Origin: Patescibacteria group bacterium
GTDB lineage: Bacteria > Patescibacteriota > Microgenomatia > Levybacterales > UBA12049
Length of the DNA: 64,000 bases
Direction of reading: 5' to 3'
NCBI GenBank assembly: GCA_026004395.1
Contig: BPJB01000001.1
Location: 649,226-713,225 of the forward strand
Position 1 is the first letter of the stretch, and each line of letters opens with the position of its first letter. Below the pieces are notes generated by a model. It was not told the DNA's origin. It made no database searches and was given only the letters and a program-made list of their open reading frames with translations. The translations under genes and the position numbers were made by a program. Positions 2,138 to 44,556 of this stretch are shown here, piece by piece.

Positions 2138-2854
2138 ATGAAAATTTCTATTCTCACACTCTTCCCAGAGATGTTTTCTGGTCCATTTGATGCATCCATA
2201 ATTAAAAAAGCCCGTGAACGAAATTTAGTAGATATACGCCTTATTAATATTCGAGATTTTGGTATTGGTAAGCATCATCTAGTAGACGATACACCCTATG
2301 GTGGAGGAGTAGGAATGGTAATGCGTGTAGATGTTCTTCATAAAGCAATACAGAAAGCTAAAGACCCCCAAATTCCTGAAGAAAAAGAAAAAGTTATTTT
2401 ATTAACACCAGATGGAACTCTTTACACGCAAAGGGTGGCTGAATCTTTTGCTCAATTTAAACATCTTATTCTTGTTTGCGGACATTATGAGGGAATAGAT
2501 GAACGAATAAAAGCCTTTGTTGATTACGAGATTTCCATAGGTGATTTTATTTTAACGGGAGGAGAGATACCTGCAATGGCAATAACTGATTCTGTTGTAA
2601 GACTTATTCCAGGAGTATTTAAGACTGGTGTAACAGAAAGCGAATCATTTTCTCTTCGAGGTGAAGGTGGTAAAATACTCCTTGAGTATCCACTGTATAC
2701 CAAACCTGCAGAGTATCTTGGTATGAAAGTACCTGATATTCTTTTGGGAGGAGACCATGCAAAAATAAAAGAGTGGAGATACGAACAAGCTCTTAAAAAA
2801 ACAAGACAAAAACGACCAGATCTTCTTCAGAAAGGAGTTAATTCAGCTGATTGA
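2138..2854 (+). CDS. trmD: tRNA (guanine37-N1)-methyltransferase TrmD
   Basis: N-terminus MKISILTLFPEMF and SPOUT-fold motifs such as GGGVGMVM. Confidence 0.9.
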   Translation: MKISILTLFPEMFSGPFDASIIKKARERNLVDIRLINIRDFGIGKHHLVDDTPYGGGVGMVMRVDVLHKAIQKAKDPQIPEEKEKVILLTPDGTLYTQRVAESFAQFKHLILVCGHYEGIDERIKAFVDYEISIGDFILTGGEIPAMAITDSVVRLIPGVFKTGVTESESFSLRGEGGKILLEYPLYTKPAEYLGMKVPDILLGGDHAKIKEWRYEQALKKTRQKRPDLLQKGVNSAD

Positions 2855-3537
2855 GAACTTGCAGGTCTTATAGCTTGTCTCGATGCTCTCCATTCTTCAA
2901 GCGTCTTAAGAAGTAGGAGATGATTTCCGCTTATACTCTTTATTGGCTGGACATATGATAACTGAATCTGCTCTGGTGCAATTTTATAAAAATAAATAAG
3001 ACTTACAGAACTTCCTCCTTTGGTATAGCTCGCTTTGATTACTTCTGCCAACGGAACTTTCTCATAAATTTCCTTTAAAAACTCCTCAATTCTTGCCAAT
3101 TCACCAATAAGTGAAAGTTGTATAGAGATTGCCGTCTGAGGTGATAGCTGGGCTGATTTGGTAGAAAGATCTCCAACTTGAAAAGAGAAATCATTTAAAA
3201 CCACTCCTGATTTAAGAGTTGCCGTATTGATAGCCTCAAGAATTCCAACAAAATCTTTTTCATACGGTAGTGCTGACTTGACAATATCAAATTGTTTGGA
3301 AAGAACATTATCTGAAGTAGAAGTCAACAAGCTTTGATTAGACTTCAAAATTGCTATTCTTGATCTTGTAGCATTAACTTCAGATTGAAGAGAGAACCAA
3401 CTTTGAATTTGTGGAAATACAATGAAAATAATAAGCCCAGCACTTACTAAAAAAATTACACCAATCACTCCAAGAGAAAACCAAAGCGAATCTTTATATC
3501 GGTAATAATACATCAAAAGTTGAGCTGAATTTTTCAT
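2827..3537 (-). CDS. pilO: Type IV pilus assembly protein PilO-like
   Basis: Single N-terminal transmembrane helix and a periplasmic coiled region. Sits downstream of pilM and pilN in an operon. Confidence 0.55.
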   Translation of the reverse strand: MKNSAQLLMYYYRYKDSLWFSLGVIGVIFLVSAGLIIFIVFPQIQSWFSLQSEVNATRSRIAILKSNQSLLTSTSDNVLSKQFDIVKSALPYEKDFVGILEAINTATLKSGVVLNDFSFQVGDLSTKSAQLSPQTAISIQLSLIGELARIEEFLKEIYEKVPLAEVIKASYTKGGSSVSLIYFYKIAPEQIQLSYVQPIKSISGNHLLLLKTLEEWRASRQAIRPASSQSAELTPF

Positions 3538-3549
3538 AACTGCTATCCT

Positions 3550-4083
3550 TCAGAGAAATTCAACTATAAATTCTGCTTGATAAAAATTTTTGCTAGTACC
3601 AAATGAATTCATAAATATACGTGCAACTCTTTTGTCTTCTTTTCCTATTCTGTTTAAGCTTTCAATATAAGCGCCTATGCTTGCTAAGTCTTTTGTTTCT
3701 ATAGTTATCTTCAGTGTTTTTTGTTCAACCTCCAGCAATGTAATTTCTAAATCTTGGGGTATATCTTTAGTGAAGGTAATTATAAAATCTCTAAATTTTG
3801 GCCTTTTGGTTACAATCTGAGATATATCATCAAGTCTATTTACAATAAGAGTTTGTTTGGTAATTTTTTCATGTTGTCGGGAAAGTGAATCCAAAAGTGC
3901 ATTTTCTTCATTTTTAAGACGAGGAAGAGGAGAGGCTAGGATTAACAAAAACACAGAAACTGACAAAACTCCAGCAAATAACAATAAAGCTATCGCAATG
4001 AACCTTAGAAGTTTTATTTTGCGAGTGAGTGCTCCAAGTGTACCTCTCCGTTTGCTATAAAGAAAATTGATATCGTTAGTCAT
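3550..4083 (-). CDS. pilN: Type IV pilus assembly protein PilN-like
   Basis: Short cytoplasmic N-terminus with an INFLY (INLLP-like) PilM-binding motif, then one transmembrane helix. Immediately follows pilM. Confidence 0.6.
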   Translation of the reverse strand: MTNDINFLYSKRRGTLGALTRKIKLLRFIAIALLLFAGVLSVSVFLLILASPLPRLKNEENALLDSLSRQHEKITKQTLIVNRLDDISQIVTKRPKFRDFIITFTKDIPQDLEITLLEVEQKTLKITIETKDLASIGAYIESLNRIGKEDKRVARIFMNSFGTSKNFYQAEFIVEFL

Positions 4084-5104
4084 TTTCTCTTAAAGCAAGA
4101 CCGACTGCGACTGTAAATCGCGGCCCTTGTTCCATCAAAATATCAGGAACTCCACTTATCGAACGTACCTTGAAGGGATTACCAATAACAGTCTCTATAC
4201 CACAATTTTTGGCAAAATACAGAGCAAGTCCAGGAAGAAGAGATGAACCACCGCTAATAATAATTTGAGATATTGGACTATCATTTTTGTATTTCTCCGT
4301 ATAATATGCAAGAGCTTTTTTAACTTCTGTAAGCATTGCCTCCAGAATAGGGGAGAGAGCAAGGCTGATTTTTCCTCCCAAGTTTTGATCATTCAGACCA
4401 TATGTTTTTTTATATTCTTCTGCTTGAGTAAGAGCAAATCCAAAATTAGAAGCAATTGCACGATCCATAGCAAGACCACCAAGCGGAATAGTATAGGTAA
4501 AAACAAGAGTATTATTCTGGATGATAGCCAAAGATGTACTCAGTGCTCCAATATTTACAATAAGTAATGCCTTATCTGATTCCTCAGGAACTAAGGAACG
4601 TATAACAGAAATAATTTCTGTTTCGATAGCATTTATTGAAAGTCCTGTCATCTCAATAATTGTTTGATAACGCCTAACAAGATTTGTAGGAGCCCCTACC
4701 AGAAGCACTTGCATTTTAGGACTTATCTCTGACATGGATCCACGCCTTAATACCTTATAGTCAAGTGTCAATGTTGATAACTGTGCTGGAATATGTTGTT
4801 CTGCCTCCCAATATATTGCTGATGATAGCTCTTTATCTGAAAGAACAGGCATATCAATTACTTTGGTAAAGACTTGATTCTCAGGTAAAGCAAGATTGAC
4901 ATTGCGTACAGTGATCTTAGAATCAACAACCAGCTGCTGTATTGCCTGCGCCATTGCCTCCTGATCAATTGCGGACTCTGAAAGCATACCTTTTGCAGGA
5001 GTAACAGTTGTCAGACATGCCTTTAGAGATGTCACTCCCTTATTCTTATCCAACCACACAATTTTCATTGATGTTGCTCCGATATCAAGTCCAAAAGTTT
5101 TCAT
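4076..5104 (-). CDS. pilM: Type IV pilus assembly ATPase-fold protein PilM
   Basis: Actin-like fold with N-terminus GLDIGATSMKIV and C-terminal IIISGGSSLLPGL. Confidence 0.85.
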   Translation of the reverse strand: MKTFGLDIGATSMKIVWLDKNKGVTSLKACLTTVTPAKGMLSESAIDQEAMAQAIQQLVVDSKITVRNVNLALPENQVFTKVIDMPVLSDKELSSAIYWEAEQHIPAQLSTLTLDYKVLRRGSMSEISPKMQVLLVGAPTNLVRRYQTIIEMTGLSINAIETEIISVIRSLVPEESDKALLIVNIGALSTSLAIIQNNTLVFTYTIPLGGLAMDRAIASNFGFALTQAEEYKKTYGLNDQNLGGKISLALSPILEAMLTEVKKALAYYTEKYKNDSPISQIIISGGSSLLPGLALYFAKNCGIETVIGNPFKVRSISGVPDILMEQGPRFTVAVGLALREND

Positions 5105-5107
5105 AAA

Positions 5108-5929: not shown

Positions 5930-5978
5930 ACTCTCAACTTATCGTAACAAGCACATTTGCTTGTGTCAACTGAAAAGA

Positions 5979-6614
5979 CTATTCTTTCAGGTTACGCATG
6001 ATTACTGTGGACTGGAAAGAAGAAGGTGTTGTCGCATCTACAACACCGCTACTATACTTTTTACTCAAGGTAAAAGAGATTGTAATTGTTGGAAAATTGT
6101 AAAGTGAATTTTGGGTACACGTAAAAGAACATGCTGTTACTACGACAGAAGAAGTATCAACAAGAGAAGCACTATTAGAGGAAATCGTACCATTGGGAAG
6201 ACTGTTACAAGAGAATGTAGTTCGTCCAGCGTCAGGATTCTCTATTATAATTGATGATGTTGTTGCTATATATCCAGTCTCGTTAAAACAAGGAGATGGA
6301 TACTCTAAAGAACGGGCATTACGTATCATTTTTGTTATTTGCGAAAGAGCATAGTTGCCATTTTGCTGGAGGATTGTGACATTTGTACTTTTATTTGAAC
6401 CGCGCAAAGATGCCAACAACACTCCAAAAACAATTCCGCTAACTGATGCTATAACAACAATTACAGCAAGAAGTTCAACAAGAGTAAAGCCTAAATTTTG
6501 CCAACGAAAAATTTTTAGTATCCAATCTTTTATAGTCAATTTCCACTGAAAATCCACTATCTTTACTTTTGAAATTTGAGATTTAAATTTTATACTTGGT
6601 AAATTTTTAATCAT
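5979..6614 (-). CDS. Type IV prepilin-like protein (minor pilin)
   Basis: Class III signal G|FTLVELLAVIVVIA with Glu at +5. The leader in the ORF track is long and the true start is unclear. Confidence 0.65.
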   Translation of the reverse strand: MIKNLPSIKFKSQISKVKIVDFQWKLTIKDWILKIFRWQNLGFTLVELLAVIVVIASVSGIVFGVLLASLRGSNKSTNVTILQQNGNYALSQITKMIRNARSLEYPSPCFNETGYIATTSSIIIENPDAGRTTFSCNSLPNGTISSNSASLVDTSSVVVTACSFTCTQNSLYNFPTITISFTLSKKYSSGVVDATTPSSFQSTVIMRNLKE

Positions 6615-7117
6615 GGTGATTTTTTGGTTGAGTAACTAGACAAGCATGTTTCAACAGTCGTTTTATGACAATAGAGATTATTCACATTTGTACAGGTATT
6701 ATCTCGCCAAGAAACAGTTACAGAAACCTTTGATTGTGTAAGAGTGGGATCATTAGTTGCTTCCTCACAAGAAGATGCATTATGTTGAAGCGTTACTTCA
6801 CGGATGTACCTGTTAGCTACGTTTAATCCACATTCAATACCTTTTGGTCCACAACTTCCTGAATCTGTTGAAAGAGAAGTACACGTATCAGCAAAACAAT
6901 ATGTGGTATTAGGTAAAGAAAAAAATGTACTATATTTATTTTCTTTCATAGTTCGAATGCTCTCTAAAGCATCCTGTGCGTATTGTGTTGCTTGCTGTTG
7001 AGAAGTACTATGAGTGGTATTTTTAAGTGCGGTAATCACTGCTAGTGTAATTGCTGAAAGAACAGCTATGCCTATTGCCAATGCAACTAAAACTTCAATT
7101 ATTGTTTCTCCCTTCAT
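6611..7117 (-). CDS. Type IV prepilin-like protein (PilV-like minor pilin)
   Basis: MKG|ETIIEVLVALAIGIAVL prepilin motif. The C-terminal domain is Cys-containing. Confidence 0.6.
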   Translation of the reverse strand: MKGETIIEVLVALAIGIAVLSAITLAVITALKNTTHSTSQQQATQYAQDALESIRTMKENKYSTFFSLPNTTYCFADTCTSLSTDSGSCGPKGIECGLNVANRYIREVTLQHNASSCEEATNDPTLTQSKVSVTVSWRDNTCTNVNNLYCHKTTVETCLSSYSTKKSP

Positions 7118-7119
7118 AA

Positions 7120-7698
7120 TTATTCAAGACTTATTGCTCCTTGTTGAGTAACAGTTACTCTTAGAGTATTACCATATCCAGTTATACCTATACTCCCAGC
7201 ACCATCTACTCCTCCAGATAAAACTTTAAAAATATATTGTGTTGATGTCGTAGTAGCTGAATCAAATGCTACGTTAGCAGGAAGTGTTTTTGTTGACAAC
7301 TTAGATGTAAGATTACCACAACGAACGTACAACTCATAAGTATTCTGAGTATTACATAGGGAGCCTGTCAATCCACAAATTCTTACCTCGTAGCCATCAA
7401 GGGTATTAGAGTTACATGCTGCAATAGATGGTTTGAGTTGCGATTGTGTACGCGACTTAGCATCCTGTAATAGAGAGATCACATCAAATGCCGCACTTTT
7501 TACAGTCTGAATTTTATTGTAAGAAACAAAAGCTGCCAAGGAAACTGTTGAGATGATGGCAATTATTACAAATACAACTAGCAACTCAAGAAGAGTAAAT
7601 CCATTTCTATTGTCAATATCGACAATTCTATAAATAAAATCAAATCGTTTCTTAATATTTTTTAATAAACTTTTATCAGTGGACAAATTTTTCTTCAT
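7120..7698 (-). CDS. Type IV prepilin-like protein (minor pilin)
   Basis: G|FTLLELLVVFVIIAII motif. Confidence 0.65.
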   Translation of the reverse strand: MKKNLSTDKSLLKNIKKRFDFIYRIVDIDNRNGFTLLELLVVFVIIAIISTVSLAAFVSYNKIQTVKSAAFDVISLLQDAKSRTQSQLKPSIAACNSNTLDGYEVRICGLTGSLCNTQNTYELYVRCGNLTSKLSTKTLPANVAFDSATTTSTQYIFKVLSGGVDGAGSIGITGYGNTLRVTVTQQGAISLE

Positions 7699-8225
7699 GG
7701 ATTATTGAGGACATAGTATTTTCCTGATATACATGATCCACTGGCTGCAGGACTTGGAGGTGTAGTAGTAGCATTTACATCATTATCATTTGCATTCTCA
7801 AGACATGCAGCAAGAGTATACGTTGAGCCATCGGAACTACTGTAATAATAGTAGTTGCCGCCATTATACGATCCAGAACCAGATCCCAATGGATCACATG
7901 GTACTTTACTCATATAAGTAACTCCATTATAAGAAAAACTCTCTGATGTAGGACATGCAGTAAGGTTTATCCTATAGGTATCCTGTCTGATAGGATAGCG
8001 ACCATTATCTGTATGAAAAAGTTGAACAGTGGCTTGCAATTGTCTAAGATCGGCTTTGCGTTGCGCATCTCGAGCTCGTTGTCTCACTCCTACAAAATTG
8101 GTCATCAAAAAAGTAGTCAGCACTCCAATTATTGCGATAACAATCAAAAGTTCGATAAGAGTAAATCCTCTTTTGCTTTTGAAGATGTAACTGATAGTTT
8201 TTATCTCTGAAAATATTTTTTTCAT
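7695..8225 (-). CDS. Type IV pilin
   Basis: KRG|FTLIELLIVIAIIGVL motif. The C-terminus is Ser/Gly/Tyr-rich and Thr/Pro-rich. Confidence 0.75.
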   Translation of the reverse strand: MKKIFSEIKTISYIFKSKRGFTLIELLIVIAIIGVLTTFLMTNFVGVRQRARDAQRKADLRQLQATVQLFHTDNGRYPIRQDTYRINLTACPTSESFSYNGVTYMSKVPCDPLGSGSGSYNGGNYYYYSSSDGSTYTLAACLENANDNDVNATTTPPSPAASGSCISGKYYVLNNP

Positions 8226-8782
8226 GGACTATAATCTGAGCTTGTTACACCATAATTACAGATAATATTCGGATCATTATTAACACTACAGGCAGTAGAT
8301 GGAATACCAAAACGTGCTGTCATATTAAGACACGGATTGCCTTGATTACACGCATCGGGATCTTTTCCCCCTCTCTCAAGACTAGCATAGAGAGCGTATG
8401 TCTGTCTATCTGGAGTTGAGTAATATACGTATCTTCTCTCACCTGTAGGATCAGCAGGAAGAATATTCATATAGGGCTGCCATGAAGATCCCCATTCTAT
8501 CGTGTTACCACCAATACGTATTTTTCTATCTGGTGATGACTCAGGATAACTGCCATAATCATGATAATAAGCTTCAAGGCTACGTTGAATTTGTGCAAGA
8601 TCTGATTTACGTCGCGCGTCATTCGCCTTAAGATATTGATTTCTAGGATCGGTAAGTGCAATTACCCCTGCGGCAAGAATACCAAAAATTGCTGCAACCA
8701 AAATAAGTTCTATAAGGGTAAATCCTTTCTTTTGTGATAAGAAAAATGAAGTAGTCATCTTTTTATAGCTTATAACTTTCAA
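8222..8782 (-). CDS. Type IV pilin
   Basis: KKG|FTLIELILVAAIFGILAAG motif. The probable start is the internal Met at 8758 (MTTSFFLSQKKG). The C-terminal domain contains Cys residues. Confidence 0.75.
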   Translation of the reverse strand: MKVISYKKMTTSFFLSQKKGFTLIELILVAAIFGILAAGVIALTDPRNQYLKANDARRKSDLAQIQRSLEAYYHDYGSYPESSPDRKIRIGGNTIEWGSSWQPYMNILPADPTGERRYVYYSTPDRQTYALYASLERGGKDPDACNQGNPCLNMTARFGIPSTACSVNNDPNIICNYGVTSSDYSP

Positions 8783-8797
8783 AAAAAAATTTCAAAA

Positions 8798-9295
8798 CTA
8801 CTTTGAACCATCAGAAAGCCTTATAGTTGAAAGATAAGAACAATCAATATTTCCTAAAGCAATACATGCCCACTGATTAGTAAAATCTAAAGGTTTACAG
8901 GATGGAAGAGTATTCAAAATACACGCTGATGCTGGCTGAGCTTTTGATAGTTTTGTAAACAAGATGCTCCATTGAGGACAGGATCCGTTTGTCTGGTATA
9001 TAAAACATTCTGTGGGATCAGAAGTACATGCAGAGCTCTGAGGCACTTTTATCATGTAAGTTGTTACTCCCTTTTTCCATTCAGATCCGAATGGTATAGT
9101 AGTAGGATAACAATTATTATCATTGTAATAAGTATCTAGTGCTGCTTTTATTTGCTGAAGACTATTTTTTTCTTCTTCATCACCAACCTTTGCCAAGTTT
9201 TTATATGGATTTAAAATAACAAATGTTAAAAGCAGCATGCTGCTTAAAATTACTATTGATACCAAAAGTTCAATAAGTGTCAAACCCTTCATCAT
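8798..9295 (-). CDS. Type IV pilin-like protein; paralog of the next gene
   Basis: MMKG|LTLIELLVSIVIL motif. The start is set at the internal Met pair at 9295 to avoid overlap with the upstream gene. Shares the YYNDxxCYPxTIPFGSEW block with the 9300-10073 protein. Confidence 0.65.
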   Translation of the reverse strand: MMKGLTLIELLVSIVILSSMLLLTFVILNPYKNLAKVGDEEEKNSLQQIKAALDTYYNDNNCYPTTIPFGSEWKKGVTTYMIKVPQSSACTSDPTECFIYQTNGSCPQWSILFTKLSKAQPASACILNTLPSCKPLDFTNQWACIALGNIDCSYLSTIRLSDGSK

Positions 9296-9299
9296 ATTT

Positions 9300-10073
9300 T
9301 TAACATGCACCATTACATGTAGGTGAACAATATGTGCCTGTACCTTGAGGGACAACATTACATCGCTGGATCGGATCACCGCGACATGCATAATTTCGCT
9401 GTTCAATCGGACAATCTTCAGGAGTCTTTTCAGGATTTACCTGTTGATTACCAGTTGGAGAAGGCGAAGAACCAGGAGGCACAGGAAGAGAAGAAAACAC
9501 CGGATTTGCAACAACAACAGAACAATCAATATTGCCTGATAAAGCACAAGACCATGAGGTGTCATAATTGGGAGGAATACAACTTGAGGAAAAAGACTTG
9601 AGAGGACATGAGACATTTTGTTCAAGATCATTTTTAACGTAGATAATATTCCACTGAGGGCAAGGATCGTTTTGATCTACCTGATAAAGATAGCAATTAG
9701 CAGGATTAGATTCACAGTCTGGAGCTTGAGGAACTTTGGACATATAAACTGTTGATCCCACACGCCATTCAGAACCAAAAGGTATAGTTTTTGGATAACA
9801 ACCAAAATCATTGTAATAGGCATCTAAAGAATTCTTAAGCTCGTTTAAATCATGGGCTCGCGTCGCATCTTTGGCTTTTTTAATCTGTGAAATTGGATCG
9901 ATCAAAATAACAACAAATACTAGTAAAATAGAAAGGATAGCAATCTCTATTATCATTTCCAGCAATGATAAACCTTTAACCGGGTATAAATATTGAGCAA
10001 AATTCTGATAGAAAGGATGTTTATCAACTGCAAAAAGTGGCACTCGTTCTGTTGTATTATCTTTCATGTTCAA
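9300..10073 (-). CDS. Type IV pilin-like protein with a Pro/Ser linker and a Cys-rich C-terminal module
   Basis: KG|LSLLEMIIEIAILSIL prepilin-like signal. A PVPPGSSPSPTG linker is followed by a 10-Cys C-terminal tail. Confidence 0.6.
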   Translation of the reverse strand: MNMKDNTTERVPLFAVDKHPFYQNFAQYLYPVKGLSLLEMIIEIAILSILLVFVVILIDPISQIKKAKDATRAHDLNELKNSLDAYYNDFGCYPKTIPFGSEWRVGSTVYMSKVPQAPDCESNPANCYLYQVDQNDPCPQWNIIYVKNDLEQNVSCPLKSFSSSCIPPNYDTSWSCALSGNIDCSVVVANPVFSSLPVPPGSSPSPTGNQQVNPEKTPEDCPIEQRNYACRGDPIQRCNVVPQGTGTYCSPTCNGAC

Positions 10074-10837
10074 AATAGGAAAAAATACTGCTTTGCAATT
10101 GACTCAAATATATTACCCCACAACATGACAAGTATTGTTCCAAAAACCAAAAATGGACCAAAAGGGATTGTATCTCCATGTAATTTCTTCTTTTTTAGTA
10201 AAACTAGTATGAGAGAAAGTATTGCACCTGTCAAGAAAGCAATATATAAACCTATGATAATTCCAGGAAAACCAAGAATAAATCCCATAACAAAAGAATA
10301 TAAAACATCTCCAAAACCCATACCTCTTCCTCTTGTCAAAAGGAAAACCGCCAAGAAAAATCCTCCTGCTGCAATTGCACTAACAACATGCGAAAAAAAT
10401 GAACTTTGATTGAGGATCAAAATCCCTATTCCTGAAATAAATGCCAAAAAAATACTTTGTACAGGAATAATGCCATAACGCCAATCTGTGACAAATATTA
10501 CAAAAAGTGATGCTAGCAAAAGAGTATAAAAAGATAATAAAAGGATAGAGGCATTTTTTAATGTTAAAAATATTATTGCAAAAATTATTCCCATTAATAC
10601 CTCGCTTACTGGATACCAAAATGACAGATTAGCATGACATGTTCTACATTTTCCTTGCAAAAAAATAAAAGAGAAAAGGGGGAAAAGCTCATACCACTTA
10701 AGAATACGCTGACAATTATCACAATGAGATCTTCCACTTATAAATGATTGATTTTTTGCAGATCTGTCTGCAACAACAAGAAAGAAACTTCCGAAAAATA
10801 ATCCTGCAAGAAAAGCAAATACCACTGACAGATCCAT
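10070..10837 (-). CDS. pilD: Prepilin leader peptidase / N-methyltransferase (A24 family)
   Basis: N-terminal CxxC...CxxC zinc motif (CDNCQRI...CRTC) and a multi-TM body containing GFGDVLY. Confidence 0.85.
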   Translation of the reverse strand: MDLSVVFAFLAGLFFGSFFLVVADRSAKNQSFISGRSHCDNCQRILKWYELFPLFSFIFLQGKCRTCHANLSFWYPVSEVLMGIIFAIIFLTLKNASILLLSFYTLLLASLFVIFVTDWRYGIIPVQSIFLAFISGIGILILNQSSFFSHVVSAIAAGGFFLAVFLLTRGRGMGFGDVLYSFVMGFILGFPGIIIGLYIAFLTGAILSLILVLLKKKKLHGDTIPFGPFLVFGTILVMLWGNIFESIAKQYFFLF

Positions 10838-17914: not shown

Positions 17915-17920
17915 ATTTCT

Positions 17921-30726: not shown

Positions 30727-30752
30727 GATTTAAGTAGAGTATAATTACCTGT

Positions 30753-31973: not shown

Positions 31974-31975
31974 CT

Positions 31976-33082: not shown

Positions 33083-33083
33083 A

Positions 33084-35658: not shown

Positions 35659-35686
35659 TATCCTTAATTTGATACAATAGAAGCAA

Positions 35687-36469: not shown

Positions 36470-36588
36470 ATAAGATTTTTTCTCTATGAAACAGTGGATT
36501 TCAATAGTTACTTTTCTCTGGTCAATACTTTTAGTGCTAATTTATATTAGTCATCTTGTTATAAAAAATATTCGTTAGATAACAAAAT

Positions 36589-38193
36589 ATGTTTGGTATT
36601 GCTATTTCTATAGGTATTTATTCATATATAATTTTTCTTTTAGCACTCTTAGGATTTTTAAACAAAAAGATTATTTTTCTAACAACTATTCTTTATTTAG
36701 TTATACTCATATTATTAAGAAAAAAAATTTATAGAAAGAAAGTTCCTTCAAAAGAGAAAAAATATTCATCATTAGGAGTTGTAGAAAAATCAATGCTCCT
36801 GATTACACTTGCATCCGCTGCTGTTGTCTTACCGGGAATACTATCTCCAGAAATCGCTTTTGATGCATTATGGTACCATCTAACACTACCCAAAATTTAC
36901 ATTAATAATTCTCACATGGTTTTTATTCCGGGAGGTCTTCTGTATTACTCAACAATGCCCAAATTAACTGAGATGCTCTACACTGCTGCTCTCTCTTTTT
37001 CAGATGAACGTCTAGCAAAAGCTATTCATGCTGGTTTTGGAGTACTCACTGTAGTTGCTACCTACATGCTAACTCGTGAATATTTAGAGAAACGTTTTGC
37101 TCTTCTAGCAGTTATTATCCTATTGGGCAACATTGTTCTTCTTTGGGAGGCAACAACAGCCTATATTGATCTTGCTAGAACGTTTTTTGAGTTGATGTCT
37201 TTTTGGGCTTTCTTAAAATGGTACAAGACTAGAGAAAAAAAGTGGTTTATTGAATCAGCGATTTTAATGGGACTTGCGATATCAACCAAACTTATAGCGA
37301 TAAGCTCTCTGATAATTATCAGTTGTATGATTTGGTTTTTATCTAAAAATGCAACTTACTGGACTAGAATGAAGATGATTGCGCAATATTCAACAATTGC
37401 AATTTTTATTGCCAGCCCCTGGTTTGTTTTCTCTTTTCTTCACACAGGAAATCCATTCTATCCTCTATTTTCTCAGTATTATCAAGTCAATTTTTCTTTA
37501 AGTCTTATTAATCCATTTTATTTTTTAAAGGATGTGCTATTGCTCTTCACGCAGTCACCAGATCCTATATCACCAATTTATCTTATTCTATTCCCGCTAA
37601 TCATCGTTAAAAGAAAATCATTTAATAACGAAAAAGCAATTTTATTAGTTTATAGCCTTGTATCTCTTTTTGTCTGGTATTTATTGCCGCGTACAGGGGG
37701 TGGTAGATTTTCATTACCGTATCTTCCAGTCTATTCTCTTGTTGCTGCCATGACAATTTCATTACTCCCTCCGAAAAGTTTTTTATCAAAATATATGATC
37801 GGTATTGCAATCTTTCTTTTAATTGTGGCAATTTCATATAGAGGAATGGCTAGCACGCGTTATATTCCCTATATACTCAGACAAGAATCAAAACATGAGT
37901 TCTTAATTAAAAATTTAAACTATTCGTTTGGTGATTTTTATGATGTTGATCGGTTTTTTGCAAGAAATATTAACCGATTTGATAAAGTACTCCTTTATGG
38001 TTTTCACAACTTGTATTATGTCAATTTTCCTTTCATACATGCTACGTGGGTGAGGAAAGGAGATCTGTTTAACTATATTGCAACGCAAAATACCACACTT
38101 CCTGATCGTTTCCAAGATTGGAATTTAGTTTACTCAAATTCCCTAACTCGTGTCAATCTTTATTCAAAAAACGGTAAATTTGCGAGGTATTGA
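36589..38193 (+). CDS. Multi-pass membrane GT-C-fold glycosyltransferase (GT39/PMT-like)
   Basis: FDALWYH loop motif and 12-13 TM helices. Confidence 0.5.
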   Translation: MFGIAISIGIYSYIIFLLALLGFLNKKIIFLTTILYLVILILLRKKIYRKKVPSKEKKYSSLGVVEKSMLLITLASAAVVLPGILSPEIAFDALWYHLTLPKIYINNSHMVFIPGGLLYYSTMPKLTEMLYTAALSFSDERLAKAIHAGFGVLTVVATYMLTREYLEKRFALLAVIILLGNIVLLWEATTAYIDLARTFFELMSFWAFLKWYKTREKKWFIESAILMGLAISTKLIAISSLIIISCMIWFLSKNATYWTRMKMIAQYSTIAIFIASPWFVFSFLHTGNPFYPLFSQYYQVNFSLSLINPFYFLKDVLLLFTQSPDPISPIYLILFPLIIVKRKSFNNEKAILLVYSLVSLFVWYLLPRTGGGRFSLPYLPVYSLVAAMTISLLPPKSFLSKYMIGIAIFLLIVAISYRGMASTRYIPYILRQESKHEFLIKNLNYSFGDFYDVDRFFARNINRFDKVLLYGFHNLYYVNFPFIHATWVRKGDLFNYIATQNTTLPDRFQDWNLVYSNSLTRVNLYSKNGKFARY

Positions 38194-38200
38194 TCAAATT

Positions 38201-39397
38201 ATGCAAAAGGTGATTTTTTTTATTTTATCTTTATCATTGGTTATTTATCAATTTGGAAGGATAAATATCTCTTCGAATATTTCATTTACTATATTGGATG
38301 TTGTAGTTTTTATTATCATCACTAGCTCTTTTTTCCGATTAATCAATCAAAGAAGATTGAATGAGATTTTTTTGAATCCCATTTTCAAACCTTTTGTTGT
38401 TTTTTCTTTTGTTGCCTTTATTTCTCTTATTTTTTCTCCCTTATCACTCAATCAGGAAGAGTTTTTTATTTCATTTTTATACCTTTTGCGCTGGTTGATG
38501 TATAACTTACTCCTCTTTGTTCTCAAACCTGCAAATAGCAATGATCACCAATATCTTGAATTTTTTCTTGTATCAAGTGGATTAGCTCTTGTTGTAACTG
38601 GGTATATCCAGTTCCTCTGGTACCCGGATCTTAGAAATCTTTATTATCTTGGATGGGATGATCATCTCTGGAGAATGTTTGGAACATTTCTAGATCCGAA
38701 TTTTTTTGGAGCATTTTTGGTATTAATAGTTCTTCTATTCTTTGATAAAGTTTTTGATGCGATAAGTAGAACAAAGAAGTTAAGTATTGCTCTCTGGAGT
38801 ATTTGCTTATTTGCCTCAATGATAGCAGTTGTTCTGACATATTCACGAACTGCATTGATTATGTTAAGTTTGGGAACAATAATATATTTTTTCTTAAAGG
38901 GTATGCAAAAATATAGTTTTCTTTTTATCTTTATTGTCGCCTCAGCTATCATCTTTTTTTCCAATATGACTATCGAAGGACAGAATTTATTACGTACTGC
39001 ATCTAGTAAAGCAAGAATTGAGTCTGCTCAACACGCAATTCAAATCGCATCAACATATCCTCTTTTGGGTGTAGGTTTTAATGCTTATCGTTATGCACAG
39101 ATCGATTTTGGCTTTCGTAAAACTTCTCCTCAGATCCCAAATCATGCCGATTCCGGTACTGATAATAGTTATCTTTTTGTTCTTGCAACGACTGGGATTG
39201 TGGGCTTTATTGGTTATGTTTTCTATCTTTACTCAATTATGCGTGAAGTATGGATTCATAAAAATAGGAAGGGTAGAGAAGTGGTAATAGCATCTTTCTT
39301 TGCAGTAGCTGTTGGCACGCTGTTTATCAACTTACTTTTTTATCCTGCAATTATCCTATGGCTGATGATTCTTTTGAATACTACTCAGAGTAAGTAA
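38201..39397 (+). CDS. O-antigen ligase (Wzy_C)-family membrane protein; candidate O-oligosaccharyltransferase
   Basis: Multi-TM protein with a central periplasmic loop and an RTALIMLSLG Wzy_C-like region. The probable start is the ATG at 38201. Confidence 0.6.
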   Translation: MQKVIFFILSLSLVIYQFGRINISSNISFTILDVVVFIIITSSFFRLINQRRLNEIFLNPIFKPFVVFSFVAFISLIFSPLSLNQEEFFISFLYLLRWLMYNLLLFVLKPANSNDHQYLEFFLVSSGLALVVTGYIQFLWYPDLRNLYYLGWDDHLWRMFGTFLDPNFFGAFLVLIVLLFFDKVFDAISRTKKLSIALWSICLFASMIAVVLTYSRTALIMLSLGTIIYFFLKGMQKYSFLFIFIVASAIIFFSNMTIEGQNLLRTASSKARIESAQHAIQIASTYPLLGVGFNAYRYAQIDFGFRKTSPQIPNHADSGTDNSYLFVLATTGIVGFIGYVFYLYSIMREVWIHKNRKGREVVIASFFAVAVGTLFINLLFYPAIILWLMILLNTTQSK

Positions 39398-40091: not shown

Positions 40092-40140
40092 ATGATATCT
40101 TTTAGATAGATCTAGTAAAAAAATTTTATATGATCTTTTG

Positions 40141-40213
40141 AGCCAACGGTGGGAATCGAACCCACGACCTCTGCTTTACGAAAGCATTGCTCTACCGACT
40201 GAGCTACGCTGGC
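40141..40213 (-). tRNA. tRNA-Thr (anticodon CGU)
   Basis: The minus strand reads GCCAGCGTAGCTCAGTCGGTAGAGCAATGCTTTCGTAAAGCAGAGGTCGTGGGTTCGATTCCCACCGTTGGCT. The cloverleaf has a 7-bp acceptor stem, a GTTCGATTCC T-loop and a TTCGTAA anticodon loop. CCA is not encoded. Confidence 0.85.
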
Positions 40214-40398
40214 CCAATACTATAGTAATTTCAAATCATTAATCAGTTTAAATTTCTTCTTGAGTTTATATACACTTCCTTAGAAAATCTTGTACTTGAT
40301 AAGCTGACAATAACACCAATAATTGTATGAGATTTCACTCGGAAAGGCAAATAATTAAAAAAATAAAATTGATTTTAAAATTATTGGAATTTAGTTGA

Positions 40399-41598
40399 TT
40401 ATTGGATTTGCGAAATGAGGTTATAAATAGGAGTAATGATGGAGATAATCAAAAAACCTACTCCTATAGCAAGAAGTACCATTATAAAAGGTTCCATAGC
40501 AGTTGTTAGTGTCTTAATTGTTTGTTCCACCTCGCGTTCAAAATACTCTGAAACTCTCAGCAATGACTCATCAAGTTTACCTGTCTGCTCACCAATCTTA
40601 ACCATCTCAACAACAATTGGAGGAAAAAGAGGGTCCGTAAGCATGGCATCTCCTATTGTAACTCCTTTCTCAACCTTTCTTCCAACCTCAAGGATTGCCT
40701 TACGATAATGGTAATTACCAACAACATCAGAACTCTGATTGAGAGATTCAACAACCAGAGATCCTGTTCCCACCAAAAGACCAAATGTTCTAGTGAACTC
40801 AACCATAGCAGATTGAGCAATCAGCTTACCAAAGATAGGCACTTTTAATAAAAATCCATCAATAAGCATCTTGCCAGTTGGGGTTTTGCCCCAGCGACGC
40901 AAATAATACATGCTAATAACACTACCACCTACTATAAATGGCCAAAATTTGATGGTGAAATTAGATAATCCAACAACCACTCTTGTTGCTAGCGGTAACT
41001 CAATATTAAGATTTTCATACAGAACGCTTAGTTGAGGTATCACAAAAATCATCATTACTGCTATCACTGCAATCATCATAATAATCACAATAATTGGATA
41101 AAGAAGTGCCGATTTAATCATACTTTTTAATTTTTGTTGTTTCTCAAGATTATCTGCTAGGCGCAGGAGTACCTTATCGAGAAGACCGGCTGACTCAGCA
41201 GCTTTTACAAGAGACACATAGATAGGAGAGAAGACTTTGGGATACTTAGCAATTGAATCTGAAAATGATTTACCTTCCTGAATTGTAGATATGATCCCTT
41301 GAACAACTTCCTGCATAGCGGGATTTTGTATTTGATTGCGCAAAATATCAAGAGATTGCATCAGAGTGAGGCCTGAGGTGAGCATGGAAGAAAGCTGTCT
41401 CGTAAAAAAAACAATTTCAGACTTGGCAGACTTTCGTCTCAAACTTAGTAAAAATCCTTTTGATGTCTGTTCTTTAATATGTATAGGAATAAAATTCTGA
41501 CTTCGAAGATACGCTGCAGCATCAGGAATATCCTTAGCTTCAATAATCCCATGAACAATTTTCCCCTGTTGATTAACTGCACGATAGAGAAGCTTCAT
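40399..41598 (-). CDS. pilC: Type IV pilus platform protein PilC (GspF family)
   Basis: Two GspF repeats and 3 TM segments. Confidence 0.85.
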   Translation of the reverse strand: MKLLYRAVNQQGKIVHGIIEAKDIPDAAAYLRSQNFIPIHIKEQTSKGFLLSLRRKSAKSEIVFFTRQLSSMLTSGLTLMQSLDILRNQIQNPAMQEVVQGIISTIQEGKSFSDSIAKYPKVFSPIYVSLVKAAESAGLLDKVLLRLADNLEKQQKLKSMIKSALLYPIIVIIMMIAVIAVMMIFVIPQLSVLYENLNIELPLATRVVVGLSNFTIKFWPFIVGGSVISMYYLRRWGKTPTGKMLIDGFLLKVPIFGKLIAQSAMVEFTRTFGLLVGTGSLVVESLNQSSDVVGNYHYRKAILEVGRKVEKGVTIGDAMLTDPLFPPIVVEMVKIGEQTGKLDESLLRVSEYFEREVEQTIKTLTTAMEPFIMVLLAIGVGFLIISIITPIYNLISQIQ

Positions 41599-41609
41599 AC
41601 TGCATTAAA

Positions 41610-42698
41610 TTATCCGAGCAATCGAGTAAGCTCTTCGGGATGATTGGCAAAACTGCGTGCAGTCTCAAGAGTGACTTGTCCTTCGCGAACAAGTTGTGCA
41701 AGAGATTCTTCAATAGTTATCATGCCAAGATCTTTTGAAGTTTGGATAATTGAATCTATAAGATGCGTCTTTCCATCTCTGATGTTGCTTGCCACTGCTG
41801 GTGTACCTACTAAAATTTCAACAGCAGGTATTCGTCCTCCAGTAATTTTAGGAAGAAGCCGTTGCGAGATTATACCTTTCAAAGAGGCGGCTAGTTGAAT
41901 TCTAATTTGAGATCGTTGATGATCAGGAAAAGCATCAACAATTCGATCAATACTTTGCGCTGCAGAATTAGTATGCAAGGTAGCAAAAACTAGATGTCCT
42001 GTCTCAGCAATAGTAAGAGCAGCGCTAATGGTCTCTGGATCGCGCATTTCCCCAATAAGGACGACATCCGGATCCTCACGTAAAGCGGAGCGAAGAGCCA
42101 TAGCCCAAGAATGTGTATCTGTTCCCATCTCTCTTTGAGAAATAATACTATTCCCCTGAGGATACACATACTCAATTGGATCCTCAATAGTAATGATATG
42201 ACTGGATTTATTGAGATTTATCTCATTGATCATTGCTGCCAGTGTACTTGATTTTCCATGACCTGTCGGACCTGTTACCAAGACAAATCCTTGACGCAAA
42301 TCAGCAAATGAGTGACAAACTCTAGGAAGTTGCAATTGCTCAATGGTGCGAATACTAGGAGGTAAGAAACGAAAAGCTGCTGCTAAATATCCTCTTTGAA
42401 AGTAAGCATTGATTCTAAAACGTCCCAAATCTCCATAGGGACCATCACCAAAACCAAAAGAAAAGTCAAGTTCTTTATTTGCAAGTAATAACTCTTTTTG
42501 CTCTGGAGTCATAAGAGAATAGACAAGAGATTCAAGTGTTTCTCGAGAAAGAGCATCAAAATGAGTTAAATATCTTAGCGAACCATCTACTCTAATAACT
42601 GGTGGAATACCCACTAGTAAATGTAGATCTGAGGCATTGTTCTTGATTGTAAGTTGTAAAAGCTCTTGTATTGATGGTCCCATATTATTCCTGTGCAA
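41610..42698 (-). CDS. pilT: Twitching-motility retraction ATPase PilT
   Basis: Walker A GPTGHGKSST, the Asp box, Walker B and His box, plus a PilT-type AIRNLIRE-like C-terminus. Confidence 0.85.
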   Translation of the reverse strand: MHRNNMGPSIQELLQLTIKNNASDLHLLVGIPPVIRVDGSLRYLTHFDALSRETLESLVYSLMTPEQKELLLANKELDFSFGFGDGPYGDLGRFRINAYFQRGYLAAAFRFLPPSIRTIEQLQLPRVCHSFADLRQGFVLVTGPTGHGKSSTLAAMINEINLNKSSHIITIEDPIEYVYPQGNSIISQREMGTDTHSWAMALRSALREDPDVVLIGEMRDPETISAALTIAETGHLVFATLHTNSAAQSIDRIVDAFPDHQRSQIRIQLAASLKGIISQRLLPKITGGRIPAVEILVGTPAVASNIRDGKTHLIDSIIQTSKDLGMITIEESLAQLVREGQVTLETARSFANHPEELTRLLG

Positions 42699-44556
42699 CT
42701 CTCAATACTTCCTCAATCGTTGTTATGCCTTGCAAAGCTTTAAGATATCCATCTTGCATCATAGTAATCATACCTTCTGCAACAGCCTGTTTTTCAACAG
42801 TTGCACTATCTGGATGTTGTAAAATAAGTTGGGCAATTTTTTCTGTAACTGGAAGCACCTCGTAAATACCAATTCTACCTTGATATCCTGAACCTCCGCA
42901 TTCGCTACAACCTTTACCTCTGTAGAGTCTTACTTCTTCATCTTTATATTTATATAGATTACCTAGTACAGATTTTATTTGTGCAAGAATTTGCGGTGTG
43001 GGAACATAGGATTCTTTACAATATTTACAGATACGCCTTGTAATACGCTGACCCACAATAGCATTCATTGTTGATGCAAGAAGAAAAGGCTCAGCACCAA
43101 GATCAATAAGACGCGGCAGCGCTCCTGCTGCACTGGAAGTATGAATTGTTGAAAAAACTAAATGGCCAGTAAGAGAAGCTTGGAGAGCAAGATCTGTAGT
43201 CTCTTTGTCTCTAATTTCCCCAACAAGAATAATATTAGGATCTTGGCGGAGGAAGGCTCTAAGACCTGAGGCAAATGTAAGTCCTACTGCAGGATTGACC
43301 TGCACCTGATTTACTCCAGGAATTTGATACTCAACAGGATCTTCCAAAGACATAATGTTCACCTTTGGAGTATTCAATTTCGATAAAATTGCATAAAGAG
43401 TCGTCGTTTTTCCGCTACCTGTTGGACCACATACGAGAATAATTCCATGTGGTCTTGCAATCGCATTTTCTAAATTCTTTAATGCTGTTCCTCCAAGTCC
43501 CAGATCGGGAAGAGTTGGAATACCACCTGATTTTCTCAAAAGACGCATAACAATTTTCTCTCCATTAACTGTAGGGAGGATGGAGACACGCAGATCTACC
43601 TCTTGATCTCCTGTCTTAAAGTTGAATCGTCCATCCTGCGGCGTCCTATGTTCATCAATTTTAAGATCAGAGAGAATCTTAATTCTAGAGATCAGTGCTT
43701 CTTGGACGTTTTTGGGAAGACTAAGCTTATCATAAAGAATACCATCAATACGATACCTAACTCGCACTCTATCTTCTTGAGGTTCAATATGAACGTCAGA
43801 GGAACGACTAGTAACAGCGTATTCTAATATCGTAGATACTATTTTGGCAATTGGAGCTTCTTTGATAATCTGAGAAATTTGTGTACTGTCTACTGTCTTT
43901 TTTTTACTAAATTCCTCTGACTCTTTTATAGCTGCTCCAACTTCTCCTACTAATTCTTGTCTATACTCCTGATTAATAGCAGCTTGTACTTCTGAGGGAG
44001 CAGCAGCAAATGTTTTAATATTAAGTCCTGTTTTCTTTTTGACAAACTCTATTGCCTCAAGATCAACAGGATTAGCCATTGCTACGTATAGAACCTGAGC
44101 TTTTTCATCATAGAAAAAGGGGATAAGTGAAAAACGCTCCACAACAGCTCGAGGCAAAAAACCTATTGCCTGAGGAGCAAAAGAGGTAGAAGTTAGAGAA
44201 ATATAAGGAACCCCTAAGAGCTTAGCCTTTGCTTCAGCTAGCTTTGCCTCAGGAACAATCCCCATCTCCTCGATGACTTTCTCAACTGGTTTACCCTCCA
44301 GAGCACTTTTTACTTTTATATCACTCGCTTGCTTAAAAGAAAGCGCATTTTCTGCAAGAAGAATATCAAGAAGAGATGAAGAGCTATCATCATTTACAGA
44401 AGAAGACGCAGAGGCAGAGGGTGATGATACATTCTGAGGCGTTGCAACAGAAGACGTCTGCTGAGTGGAAGGTGCAGTTTGTACATTCTGAAGATTAGTT
44501 TGAGTTGATGAATTATTGATCTGGACAGAATCAGACATTATTACCATAGTAGTCAA
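42685..44556 (-). CDS. pilB: Type IV pilus assembly ATPase PilB (GspE family) with an N-terminal Ser/Thr/Gln-rich extension
   Basis: Walker A GPTGSGKTTT and a tetracysteine CxxC...CxxC. The first roughly 60 aa are low-complexity. Confidence 0.85.
   Translation of the reverse strand: MTTMVIMSDSVQINNSSTQTNLQNVQTAPSTQQTSSVATPQNVSSPSASASSSVNDDSSSSLLDILLAENALSFKQASDIKVKSALEGKPVEKVIEEMGIVPEAKLAEAKAKLLGVPYISLTSTSFAPQAIGFLPRAVVERFSLIPFFYDEKAQVLYVAMANPVDLEAIEFVKKKTGLNIKTFAAAPSEVQAAINQEYRQELVGEVGAAIKESEEFSKKKTVDSTQISQIIKEAPIAKIVSTILEYAVTSRSSDVHIEPQEDRVRVRYRIDGILYDKLSLPKNVQEALISRIKILSDLKIDEHRTPQDGRFNFKTGDQEVDLRVSILPTVNGEKIVMRLLRKSGGIPTLPDLGLGGTALKNLENAIARPHGIILVCGPTGSGKTTTLYAILSKLNTPKVNIMSLEDPVEYQIPGVNQVQVNPAVGLTFASGLRAFLRQDPNIILVGEIRDKETTDLALQASLTGHLVFSTIHTSSAAGALPRLIDLGAEPFLLASTMNAIVGQRITRRICKYCKESYVPTPQILAQIKSVLGNLYKYKDEEVRLYRGKGCSECGGSGYQGRIGIYEVLPVTEKIAQLILQHPDSATVEKQAVAEGMITMMQDGYLKALQGITTIEEVLRVAQE

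Follow-up and report, generated by a model that had tools for sequence, protein, structure and literature searches.

Type IV pili (T4P) are central to host attachment and lifestyle in the Patescibacteria (candidate phyla radiation, CPR). In a study of Saccharibacteria T4P, pilin O-glycosylation sites were only computationally predicted, and the process was called unexplored (PMC11623550). Two enzymes described elsewhere provide the closest points of reference. In Pseudomonas aeruginosa group IV strains (Pa5196/PA7), TfpW is the pilin D-arabinofuranosyl transferase and is required for pilin arabinosylation; it is a 646-amino-acid (aa) glycosyltransferase of the GT-C class whose loop 1 has an acidic motif and whose C-terminal TPR domain is periplasmic, and its gene lies immediately downstream of pilA. 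Human TMEM260 (PF11028; PDB 9rql/9rqm/9rqn) is a protein O-mannosyltransferase for the IPT domains of plexins, cMET and RON, in which D52, H67, R264, Y267 and R355 are reported as needed for donor binding and activity, D441 as the catalytic base, and the TPR domain as the recruiter of the acceptor (preprint 10.64898/2026.03.17.711096). A different kind of pilin-modifying enzyme, the O-oligosaccharyltransferase (O-OTase) PglL, is unlinked to pilE in Neisseria. Here, a T4P locus was analyzed in a 64-kb stretch of contig BPJB01000001.1 (the window, meaning the whole stretch of DNA that was studied), which is chromosomal DNA of a Levybacteria-like member of the Patescibacteria. The preferred reading, given a probability of roughly 0.6, is that this locus carries its own TfpW-like pilin O-glycosyltransferase, a TMEM260-family GT-C protein encoded directly after a pilin gene, and was later split in this lineage by a ~17.5-kb envelope-glycan cluster.

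No description of such a candidate enzyme, which is conserved within T4P loci of Patescibacteria, was met in the full texts covered, which were incomplete, and an earlier account elsewhere is possible: no paper joined DUF2723 or TMEM260 with pilin, and the only full-text match for CPR, pilin and mannosyltransferase together was a transposon-insertion sequencing review. As no paper was found to link pilin with the TMEM260 family, a bacterial model with a defined substrate would be useful, and the conserved pair of pilA and GT-C genes offers a concrete enzyme to test, with candidate residues mapped below. If the enzyme were a core ancestral T4P accessory across Patescibacteria, a more doubtful extension of the preferred reading, the making of a pilus in these ultrasmall episymbionts would include pilin O-glycosylation as a built-in step, and the enzyme behind human SHDRA syndrome would gain a bacterial counterpart with pilin as its natural substrate.

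The pilin and GT-C gene pair

The 669-aa GT-C protein (Table 1) was matched to human TMEM260 (9rql_A) over residues 8-458 in a single-sequence search (phmmer, E=2.7e-28), and a profile of the 38-sequence GT-C family was matched to the same protein at E=9.2e-78. In the HMMER alignment, D52, H67, R264, Y267, R355 and D441 of TMEM260 corresponded to D30, H45, R236, Y239, R323 and D417, respectively; among the 38 family members, H45, R236, Y239 and D417 were invariant, and D30 and R323 were conserved in at least 90%. The AlphaFold2 (AF2) model (predicted local distance difference test, pLDDT, 91.6) combined a polytopic core in the membrane with an alpha/beta domain (394-530) and a C-terminal TPR domain (551-668), and TPR matches were also returned by profile search. 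By homology, the alpha/beta and TPR domains are predicted to lie on the non-cytoplasmic side. The top Foldseek matches of the model in the PDB were STT3A, ArnT, PglB and DPY19, which are protein or lipid GT-C transferases. No NCBIfam subfamily model scored above its cut-off for any GT-C of the window, and the TMEM260 acceptor sequon (P-x5-P-x3-G-P-x2-G/A-G-G-x2-T/S) was not evident in PilA.

The gene directly upstream encodes a PilA-like prepilin, the eighth of the locus and its probable major pilin, which was also matched weakly to Myxococcus PilA. Ten nucleotides separate the pilA stop from the GT-C start, without a terminator between them. A sigma-70-like site (11/12) was located ahead of pilA at 16388-16359, in a promoter and terminator scan whose total number of sites was not above that of shuffled sequence. 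An initial annotation of the window had named DUF2723 among its proposed checks and had overlooked this prepilin and its position directly before the DUF2723/TMEM260-like GT-C. The pair is the part that stays within the T4P loci of relatives. The overlapping operon on the other side of the GT-C gene encodes enzymes of glycosyltransferase families 2 and 4 (GT2, GT4) and an FkbM-type methyltransferase. Its GT2 (GT2a) was considered as a polyprenyl-phosphate-mannose synthase, which was not supported: it gave generic GT2 matches only, and its best solved relative was chondroitin synthase.

Gene order was compared across 84 GT-C/T4P loci from relatives (L numbers), obtained by context look-ups and a metagenome scan. 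In L084 (37-38% identity), the locus is unbroken and runs pilB-pilT-pilC-membrane protein-receiver-GAF kinase-pilin-GT-C-GT2-GT2-pilD-pilins. The order GT-C-FkbM-GT4-GT2-pilD-pilins in L085 and L088 is an exact match to the window; GT2 and GT4 genes stand between GT-C and pilD in L090 and L091, and GT2 alone in L084, L086 and L094. Unbroken T4P loci were likewise found in L146, L102, L101, L108, L109, L122 and L094, and in three of these (L146, L102, L094) the holB(-gyrB) flank that stands to the right of pilB in the window lies next to pilB without an island. When the GT-C scored at least 120 bits, T4P genes were present in 26/36 loci, and a prepilin gene lay directly upstream on the same strand in 18 of the 30 loci with adequate flanks; below 120 bits the association faded (7/40). 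The 24 upstream pilins belong to one conserved PilA family (pattern KGFTLIELL...IDPFEQLKK...GELK...CYWC), and the pilA-GT-C order and tight spacing persist to ~25-29% identity. No match to the Wzy_C protein of the window or to its immunoglobulin-like (Ig-like) neighbor, both described below, was present in any of the 84 loci, and the other three GT-C paralogs of the window showed no T4P linkage in relatives.

A second GT-C of the YfhO family (720-750 aa) was observed between the TMEM260-like GT-C and pilD in more distant Patescibacteria T4P loci (Table 1). Its position suggests a two-step extracytoplasmic glycosylation tied to the pilus.

Under the preferred reading, the ancestral order would have been gyrB-holB, then pilB-pilT-pilC-(membrane protein, receiver, kinase)-pilA-GT-C-(GT2/GT4/FkbM)-pilD-minor pilins-pilMNO. 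The GT-C gene, for an inverting glycosyltransferase of the TMEM260 family, is probably co-transcribed with pilA. Judged from its homolog TMEM260 and its analog TfpW, the enzyme would bind a polyprenyl-phosphate hexose in its membrane domain; an extended segment of exported pilin would be gripped by the outward alpha/beta and TPR domains, which would place a Ser or Thr before the catalytic Asp417. PilA, and perhaps minor pilins too, would thus be O-glycosylated on the outer side of the membrane, prior to pilus assembly, as TfpW does for the group IV pilins of P. aeruginosa. The lipid-linked donor would probably be built or modified in the cytoplasm by the GT2, GT4 and FkbM enzymes.

Layout of the pilus locus and its proposed insertion

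The inventory was made from a listing of open reading frames (ORFs) and from Pfam and NCBIfam scans of the ORFs of the window (Table 1). The window has a G+C content of ~33%, and core chromosomal genes frame the region, with nusB, rnc and trmD on the left and holB, gyrB, ppa, gyrA and folD on the right. T4P genes are found in two blocks (2.8-10.8 kb and 40.4-44.6 kb), so that the locus is physically split in this lineage, as the initial annotation had described; Pfam matches and translations agreed with its placement of pilM, the PilX-like gene, seven prepilin genes and pilD in the first block and of pilC, pilT and pilB in the second. Within its pilMNO assignment, pilM was well supported, pilO was a weak match, and pilN was placed by position. 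It had further counted 4 GT2 genes, a Wzx flippase, 2 methyltransferases, an aminotransferase, an epimerase and a Wzy_C gene between the blocks, all of which were recovered by Pfam (the aminotransferase is of the DegT type and the epimerase an epimerase/dehydratase); GT4 genes numbered 4 rather than 5, and of the 4-5 proposed GT-C membrane transferases four were found. Among the profile searches that it proposed, Wzy_C, PMT_2 and DUF2723/TMEM260-like were matched and PglL_A was not.

Table 1. Positions of the genes discussed in the text, with strand and supporting matches; ^ marks the end of a prepilin leader.
Feature	Position	Strand	Match or remark
pilO-like	2827-3537	-	Pfam PilO 18 bits, below cut-off (weak)
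pilN	3550-4083	-	Assigned by position only; no Pfam match
pilM	4076-5104	-	PilM_2, 174 bits
PilX-like, 273 aa	5108-5929	-	No Pfam match; hydrophobic N-terminal segment after KG, no Glu5
Minor prepilin 1	5979-6614	-	
Minor prepilin 2	6611-7117	-	
Minor prepilin 3	7120-7698	-	
Minor prepilin 4	7695-8225	-	
Minor prepilin 5	8222-8782	-	
Minor prepilin 6	8798-~9295	-	
Minor prepilin 7	9300-10073	-	
pilD prepilin peptidase	10070-10837	-	A24_N_bact 95 bits, Peptidase_A24 46 bits
GT2 (GT2a)	10916-11956	+	Overlapping operon with the next two genes; divergent from pilD, convergent with GT-C
GT4	11941-12933	+	
Methyltransferase, FkbM-type	12930-13742	+	
GT-C glycosyltransferase, 669 aa (KatS3mg089_0657)	13757-15766	-	Pfam TMEM260-like (formerly DUF2723) 94.2 bits, cut-off 24.2
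PilA-like eighth prepilin, 184 aa	15777-16331	-	N_methyl 31 bits; leader MITARIQSLSKG^FTLIELL
Two tandem GAF-HisKA-HATPase histidine kinases	16517-19402	-	Pfam
Sua5/YciO/YrdC-like gene	19466-20245	-	
220-aa gene	20579-21241	-	Function not assigned
Stand-alone receiver, 140 aa	21442-21864	+	No output domain
297-aa polytopic membrane protein	21848-22741	-	Receiver gene converges on it
Module 1, lone GT4	22962-24038	+	
Module 1 operon, DegT aminotransferase	24041-25177	-	PseC 371 bits, ArnB 269 bits
Module 1 operon, epimerase/dehydratase	25179-26204	-	
Module 1 operon, methyltransferase	26201-27040	-	
Module 1 operon, ArnC/PgfS-like GT2	27046-27966	-	PgfS 224 bits, ArnC 171 bits
Module 1 operon, GT-C YfhO/PTPS_related	27963-29720	-	
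Module 2, upstream part	29764-38193	+	GT2, Wzx, GT4, GT4, GT-C PMT_2, GT2, GT-C PMT_2
Module 2, Wzx flippase	30753-31973	+	
Module 2, GT-C PMT_2	34177-35658	+	
Module 2, GT2	35687-36469	+	
Module 2, GT-C PMT_2	36589-38193	+	
Wzy_C-family membrane enzyme, 398 aa	38201-39397	+	Wzy_C (PF04932) 60.7 bits, cut-off 31.7
Ig-like bitopic protein, 236 aa	39381-40091	-	Converges on Wzy_C, 17-nt 3' overlap (39381-39397)
tRNA-Thr(CGT)	40140-40213	-	Right end of translocated block
pilC	40399-41598	-	T2SSF 202 bits
pilT	41610-42698	-	T2SSE 151 bits
pilB	42685-44556	-	T2SSE 427 bits; MshEN
All 4 GT2 genes (first positions)	10916, 27046, 29764, 35687		
All 4 GT4 genes (first positions)	11941, 22962, 31976, 33084		
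All 4 GT-C genes (first positions)	13757, 27963, 34177, 36589		
Both methyltransferases (first positions)	12930, 26201		
tRNA-Thr(CGT) in L002	11902-11974		
tRNA-Thr(CGT) in L001	6914-6989		
YfhO-family second GT-C in L146	9862-12030		
YfhO-family second GT-C in L109	3581-5839		
YfhO-family second GT-C in L108	6829-9042		
YfhO-family second GT-C in L099	3445-5700		

Among the seven minor prepilins, N_methyl, T2SSG or Tt1218 matches were obtained for six (Pfam), and the class III signal motif G^(F/L/E)(T/S)(L/I)(I/L/V)E was read in the translations of all seven. Their gene order is identical in L088 and L084, and pilM is the far end of the locus in L101 and L109, where homologs of the PilX-like protein directly precede it. 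Ser/Thr/Pro-rich C-terminal tracts, attributed by the initial annotation to several pilins, were clear in the fourth and seventh only. The sixth prepilin ORF was listed as 8798-9406, with a TTG start that overlaps the seventh by 107 nt; the true start is probably near 9295, at MMKG^LTLIELL, the listed TTG being too far upstream. In the seventh, ~33 aa precede KG^LSLLEM, an unusually long leader, and the C-terminus is extended by a stretch rich in Cys and in Ser/Pro.

The region between the two T4P blocks had been described as encoding glycan assembly throughout. It was found to contain, besides the glycan genes, the Ig-like protein, the tRNA-Thr and the genes of 15.8-22.7 kb, namely the PilA-like prepilin, the two kinases, the Sua5/YrdC-like gene, the 220-aa gene, the receiver and the 297-aa membrane protein. 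A kinase homolog sits between the receiver gene and pilA in L084. The Sua5-like and 220-aa genes keep their order in the close relative L088; the Sua5/YciO/YrdC-family gene, which lies within the pilus locus in the interval from kinases to receiver, is placed alike there and not in L084. The tandem paralogous kinases and the lone receiver are positioned like PilS/PilR, but without a DNA-binding response regulator. The C-terminal part of the 297-aa membrane protein is helical and is similar to a HisKA dimerization segment without the phospho-accepting His (AELREPINDI), and the protein may be the sensor partner of the soluble GAF kinases.

Comparison with relatives placed the insertion between the 297-aa membrane protein and pilC, at ~22.9-40.2 kb, which is ~17.5 kb and not the ~29 kb first proposed. 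Its left edge is marked by L084, in which the ortholog of the membrane protein (L084 2633-3391; 64% identity) abuts pilC, between pilC and the receiver. G+C was 0.30-0.34 in the island vs. 0.36-0.39 in the flanks. Going by gene orientation, the region is divided into 8 or more transcription units that use both strands, and the label of a single supra-operon, applied in the initial annotation, is therefore inaccurate. A search for a mobile-element signature of the island gave AT-rich repeats at chance level only, and repeats flanking it did not exceed chance; the right-edge tRNA was not an obvious integration scar and belongs to the conserved Wzy_C block. A XerC/D-like tyrosine recombinase (54138-55079; Phage_integrase 151 bits) is encoded ~10 kb to the right of the pilus locus, and no link to the island was found.

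The insertion would be a composite of two modules. Module 1 is similar to the Arn, Pgf and CsbB-YfhO systems and would produce a polyprenyl-phosphate amino-sugar for use by its GT-C; the PgfS, ArnC, PseC and ArnB scores are all below the equivalog cut-offs, and no GtrA/ArnEF-type flippase was identified for this module. Module 2 would be a Wzx-containing cluster ending in the Levyibacteriota-wide block of GT-C, Wzy_C, Ig-like protein and tRNA-Thr. Most likely, both modules would serve the synthesis or attachment of a cell-surface glycan without relation to pili. In L001, a fused GT2-PMT_2 protein (190-2427; 745 aa) takes the place of the separate GT4 and GT-C encoded at 33084-35658 in the window, which indicates that the glycan cluster is variable even among close relatives.

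The Wzy_C block and alternative explanations

No PglL_A or Wzy_C_2 domain was found in the Wzy_C protein (Pfam, E<=0.01), which is weak evidence as these models are mainly built from Proteobacteria. Nothing in NCBIfam scored above cut-off (the repeat-unit polymerase model TIGR04370 reached 16 bits vs. a cut-off of 40), and no PDB sequence match was obtained with either the single sequence or a 35-sequence profile, even at E<=10. When the AF2 model (pLDDT 87.6) was searched against the PDB with Foldseek, WaaL was returned (7tpg_B, E=3.4e-7, TM-score 0.62, 14% identity), followed by the SEDS proteins FtsW and RodA; no PglL, TfpO or Wzy structure was returned, so that the structural comparison with PglL proposed in the initial annotation led to WaaL and SEDS only. 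The fold thus confirms the superfamily and does not separate ligase, polymerase and O-OTase. The family is conserved at ~40% identity, with 42 invariant columns in 35 sequences (including R216, R265, R272 and D321) and a nearly invariant H315; R216, R265, R272 and H315 lie in or near an extracytoplasmic loop. The convergent gene encodes an Ig-like protein with a basic N-terminus, one transmembrane helix and two Ig-like (Glucodextran_B) domains, together with a variable Ser/Thr-rich linker (~36 aa; 44% S/T/P/A) and a conserved ATNSA motif. Its role, as a speculation, might be that of an acceptor or of an accessory subunit.

Loci with Wzy_C homologs (n = 83) were collected by a scan of one genome per GTDB species (80 loci) with 3 more added, and were searched by tblastn with all proteins of the window region; 61/83 had at least 5 kb of downstream flank. 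The homologs were labelled mostly Levybacteria/Levyibacteriota or Microgenomates. The Ig-like gene was the convergent neighbor of Wzy_C in 82/82 loci with any downstream flank, and the tRNA-Thr(CGT) lay just past it in 60/74, with 59 oriented as in the window. In most of the 82 relatives, at a protein identity of only ~40%, the two genes still converge end to end or overlap. Homologs of the GT2 (35687) were found nearby in 67/83 loci, of the GT-C (36589) in 58/83 with a median gap of 55 nt, of the GT-C (34177) in 43/83 and of Wzx in 29/83; the GT-C, Wzy_C, the Ig-like protein and tRNA-Thr(CGT) form a conserved Levyibacteriota unit. Module 1 was poorly represented within 10 kb of the 83 homologs: its lone GT4 had homologs in 12/83, its aminotransferase, epimerase and methyltransferase in a single locus, and its GT2 and GT-C in none.

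The pilus motor genes pilB, pilT and pilC lay beside Wzy_C in 1/83 loci, that of the 81%-identical close relative L001. In L002, the block stands between housekeeping genes and pyrimidine and ATP-synthase genes, and in the window Wzy_C is ~22 kb from the PilA-like gene. No tRNA was found in six island-free T4P loci that were checked. As pilus genes adjoin the block only in one close relative, the adjacency to pilC is read as a lineage-specific rearrangement that is uninformative on function, and the synteny comparison leaves the Wzy_C module unlinked to T4P in relatives, an outcome that the initial annotation had itself named as refuting its proposal. In the window ORFs scanned, neither an initiating phosphoglycosyltransferase nor a co-polymerase gene was encountered, and no lipopolysaccharide (LPS) genes were seen within the 64-kb window. 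The evidence favors a role of Wzy_C in a cell-surface glycan or a non-pilin glycoprotein; its place beside pilus genes is a lineage-specific juxtaposition and should not enter annotation as 'pilin O-OTase'. Of the initial annotation, dedicated pilin glycosylation stays plausible, whereas the choice of enzyme for it, and the island and pilus as one functional unit, are not supported.

That choice of enzyme made the Wzy_C protein a PglL/TfpO-type O-OTase, transferring an undecaprenyl-diphosphate-linked oligosaccharide, built by the GT2 and GT4 enzymes of the island and flipped by Wzx, to pilins, with 2.8-44.6 kb as one unit. Such an enzyme would fit the family membership, the conserved loop arginines and histidine, the Wzx and several glycosyltransferases in the Wzy_C operon, the position beside pilC here and in the 81%-identical relative, and the Ser/Thr/Pro-rich tracts of two pilins; the conservation of Wzy_C while the upstream glycosyltransferases vary would also be expected of a ligase or O-OTase whose acceptor is fixed, more than of a repeat-unit polymerase, and PglL-type enzymes need no linkage to the pilin gene. 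Because PglL is itself unlinked to pilE, the loss of synteny removes support for a pilin role and not its possibility. However, T4P linkage is missing in 82/83 loci, the constant partners of Wzy_C are the Ig-like protein and tRNA-Thr rather than pilus genes, the PglL_A and Wzy_C_2 domains are absent and the gene is not downstream of pilA, the T4P loci of relatives lack Wzy_C and hold a different candidate transferase, and the region comprises many transcription units on both strands. This explanation is accordingly regarded as quite improbable. A better case, still on the unlikely side, can be made for Wzy_C as the repeat-unit polymerase (Wzy) of an ordinary Wzx/Wzy surface polysaccharide, without a protein acceptor and with the Ig-like protein as an accessory in chain length or anchoring. 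Its operon contains Wzx, GT2 and GT4 genes, L002 shows the classic order GT4-GT2-Wzx-GT2-methyltransferase-GT2-GT2-Wzy_C, TIGR04370 is weakly matched, and the low G+C of the island and its gene content, which differs from that of the 81%-identical relative, are typical of variable surface-glycan loci. The TIGR04370 score is nevertheless far below its cut-off, and neither an initiating phosphoglycosyltransferase nor a co-polymerase accompanies the gene in the ORFs scanned. Wzy polymerases are usually poorly conserved, but Wzy_C keeps its 42 invariant columns while its glycosyltransferase neighbors vary.

Other objections concern the TMEM260-like GT-C itself, whose substrate might be a cell-wall polymer or some exported protein other than pilin, with its place in the T4P locus due to co-regulation or historical accident. 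The 12/30 loci without a pilin directly upstream agree with this, as do an L087 homolog in an unrelated context, the many GT-C paralogs of Patescibacteria (four in the window alone) and the second GT-C that adjoins in more distant relatives and is of the YfhO type, a family linked to the glycosylation of teichoic acids. Against it, the pilA-GT-C order and close spacing hold to ~25-29% identity, TMEM260 (the closest characterized relative) and TfpW are both protein O-glycosyltransferases with a non-cytoplasmic TPR domain, and the other three GT-Cs of the window lack T4P linkage in relatives; a non-pilin substrate is considered improbable, if less so than a pilin role for Wzy_C. A bolder extension can be offered only tentatively, and is more readily doubted than believed: that the TMEM260-family GT-C is a core ancestral T4P accessory in Patescibacteria, joined in some lineages by the second YfhO-type GT-C, and that, separately, the Wzy_C/Ig-like pair is a dedicated O-OTase with its own acceptor or adaptor.

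The reading of the GT-C as a TfpW-like pilin O-glycosyltransferase in a later-split locus is preferred in spite of several observations that weigh against it. The metagenome sample was picked by one peptide motif and tblastn rank and is not phylogenetically balanced, so that related populations may inflate the GT-C synteny counts. Among the GT-C loci of at least 120 bits, no recognizable pilin was directly upstream in the 12 adequately flanked loci mentioned above, no T4P gene was present in 10/36 (some of these contigs being short), the locus L087 resembles a paralog in another context, and the GT2, GT4 and FkbM genes were found only in closer relatives (8/36, 4/36 and 2/36). GT2a is not recognizably a polyprenyl-phosphate-hexose synthase. 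The adjacency of Wzy_C and pilC was retained in the sole close relative at hand, and as PglL-type O-OTases modify pilins without linkage to their genes, Wzy_C could still act on pilins. Finally, gene content, homology, conserved residues and synteny are what was shown; from these we infer pilin glycosylation itself, PilA as its acceptor, the sugar and the donor pathway, and the co-transcription of pilA with GT-C and the direction of the rearrangement are likewise put forward as probable.

Comparison with known systems

The module 1 operon resembles ArnB/C/T, CsbB-YfhO and PgfS/E/M of Streptococcus mutans in its ArnC/PgfS-like GT2, YfhO/PTPS_related GT-C, aminotransferase and epimerase/dehydratase; unlike in those systems, all of its scores fall short of equivalog level and no flippase of the GtrA/ArnEF type goes with it. 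For the Wzy_C protein, WaaL (7tpg) is the best and only significant structural match, without a match at the level of sequence even by profile. Patescibacteria are considered to have neither an outer membrane nor LPS, and a lipid A-core acceptor is therefore unlikely. With PglL of Neisseria and TfpO/PilO of P. aeruginosa 1244, the protein shares the Wzy_C domain, the loop arginines, the near-invariant histidine, and nearby genes for lipid-linked glycan assembly and Wzx; it differs from them in lacking PglL_A and Wzy_C_2, in not following pilA (the hallmark of TfpO), in its Ig-like partner, and in being unlinked to T4P genes in nearly all loci. The Synechococcus Ogt pilin glycosyltransferase was considered as a comparator and left out, as it is a cytoplasmic GT41 enzyme and not comparable.

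The TMEM260-like GT-C was compared with TfpW by published architecture. TfpW is likewise a polytopic GT-C of ~650 aa whose gene comes right after that of the pilin, with an acidic motif in the first outward loop and a large C-terminal TPR domain. It differs in that its host is a Proteobacterium, whereas the host of the GT-C is of the monoderm-type Patescibacteria, and the acidic motif is DDX in TfpW vs. GGDxGD in the GT-C. The D-arabinofuranose genes of the TfpW system are replaced here by the GT2, GT4 and FkbM neighbors; DprE1/DprE2-type genes for this sugar were not found among the window ORFs scanned (Pfam), and could lie elsewhere in the genome. TMEM260 uses dolichyl-phosphate mannose, whereas the bacterial GT-C would use a bacterial polyprenyl-phosphate sugar, and the acceptor is an IPT domain for the human enzyme vs. 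the proposed type IV pilin for the GT-C. The two are alike in sequence homology, in the six functional residues, and in the domain order of GT-C core, Rossmann-like domain and TPR.

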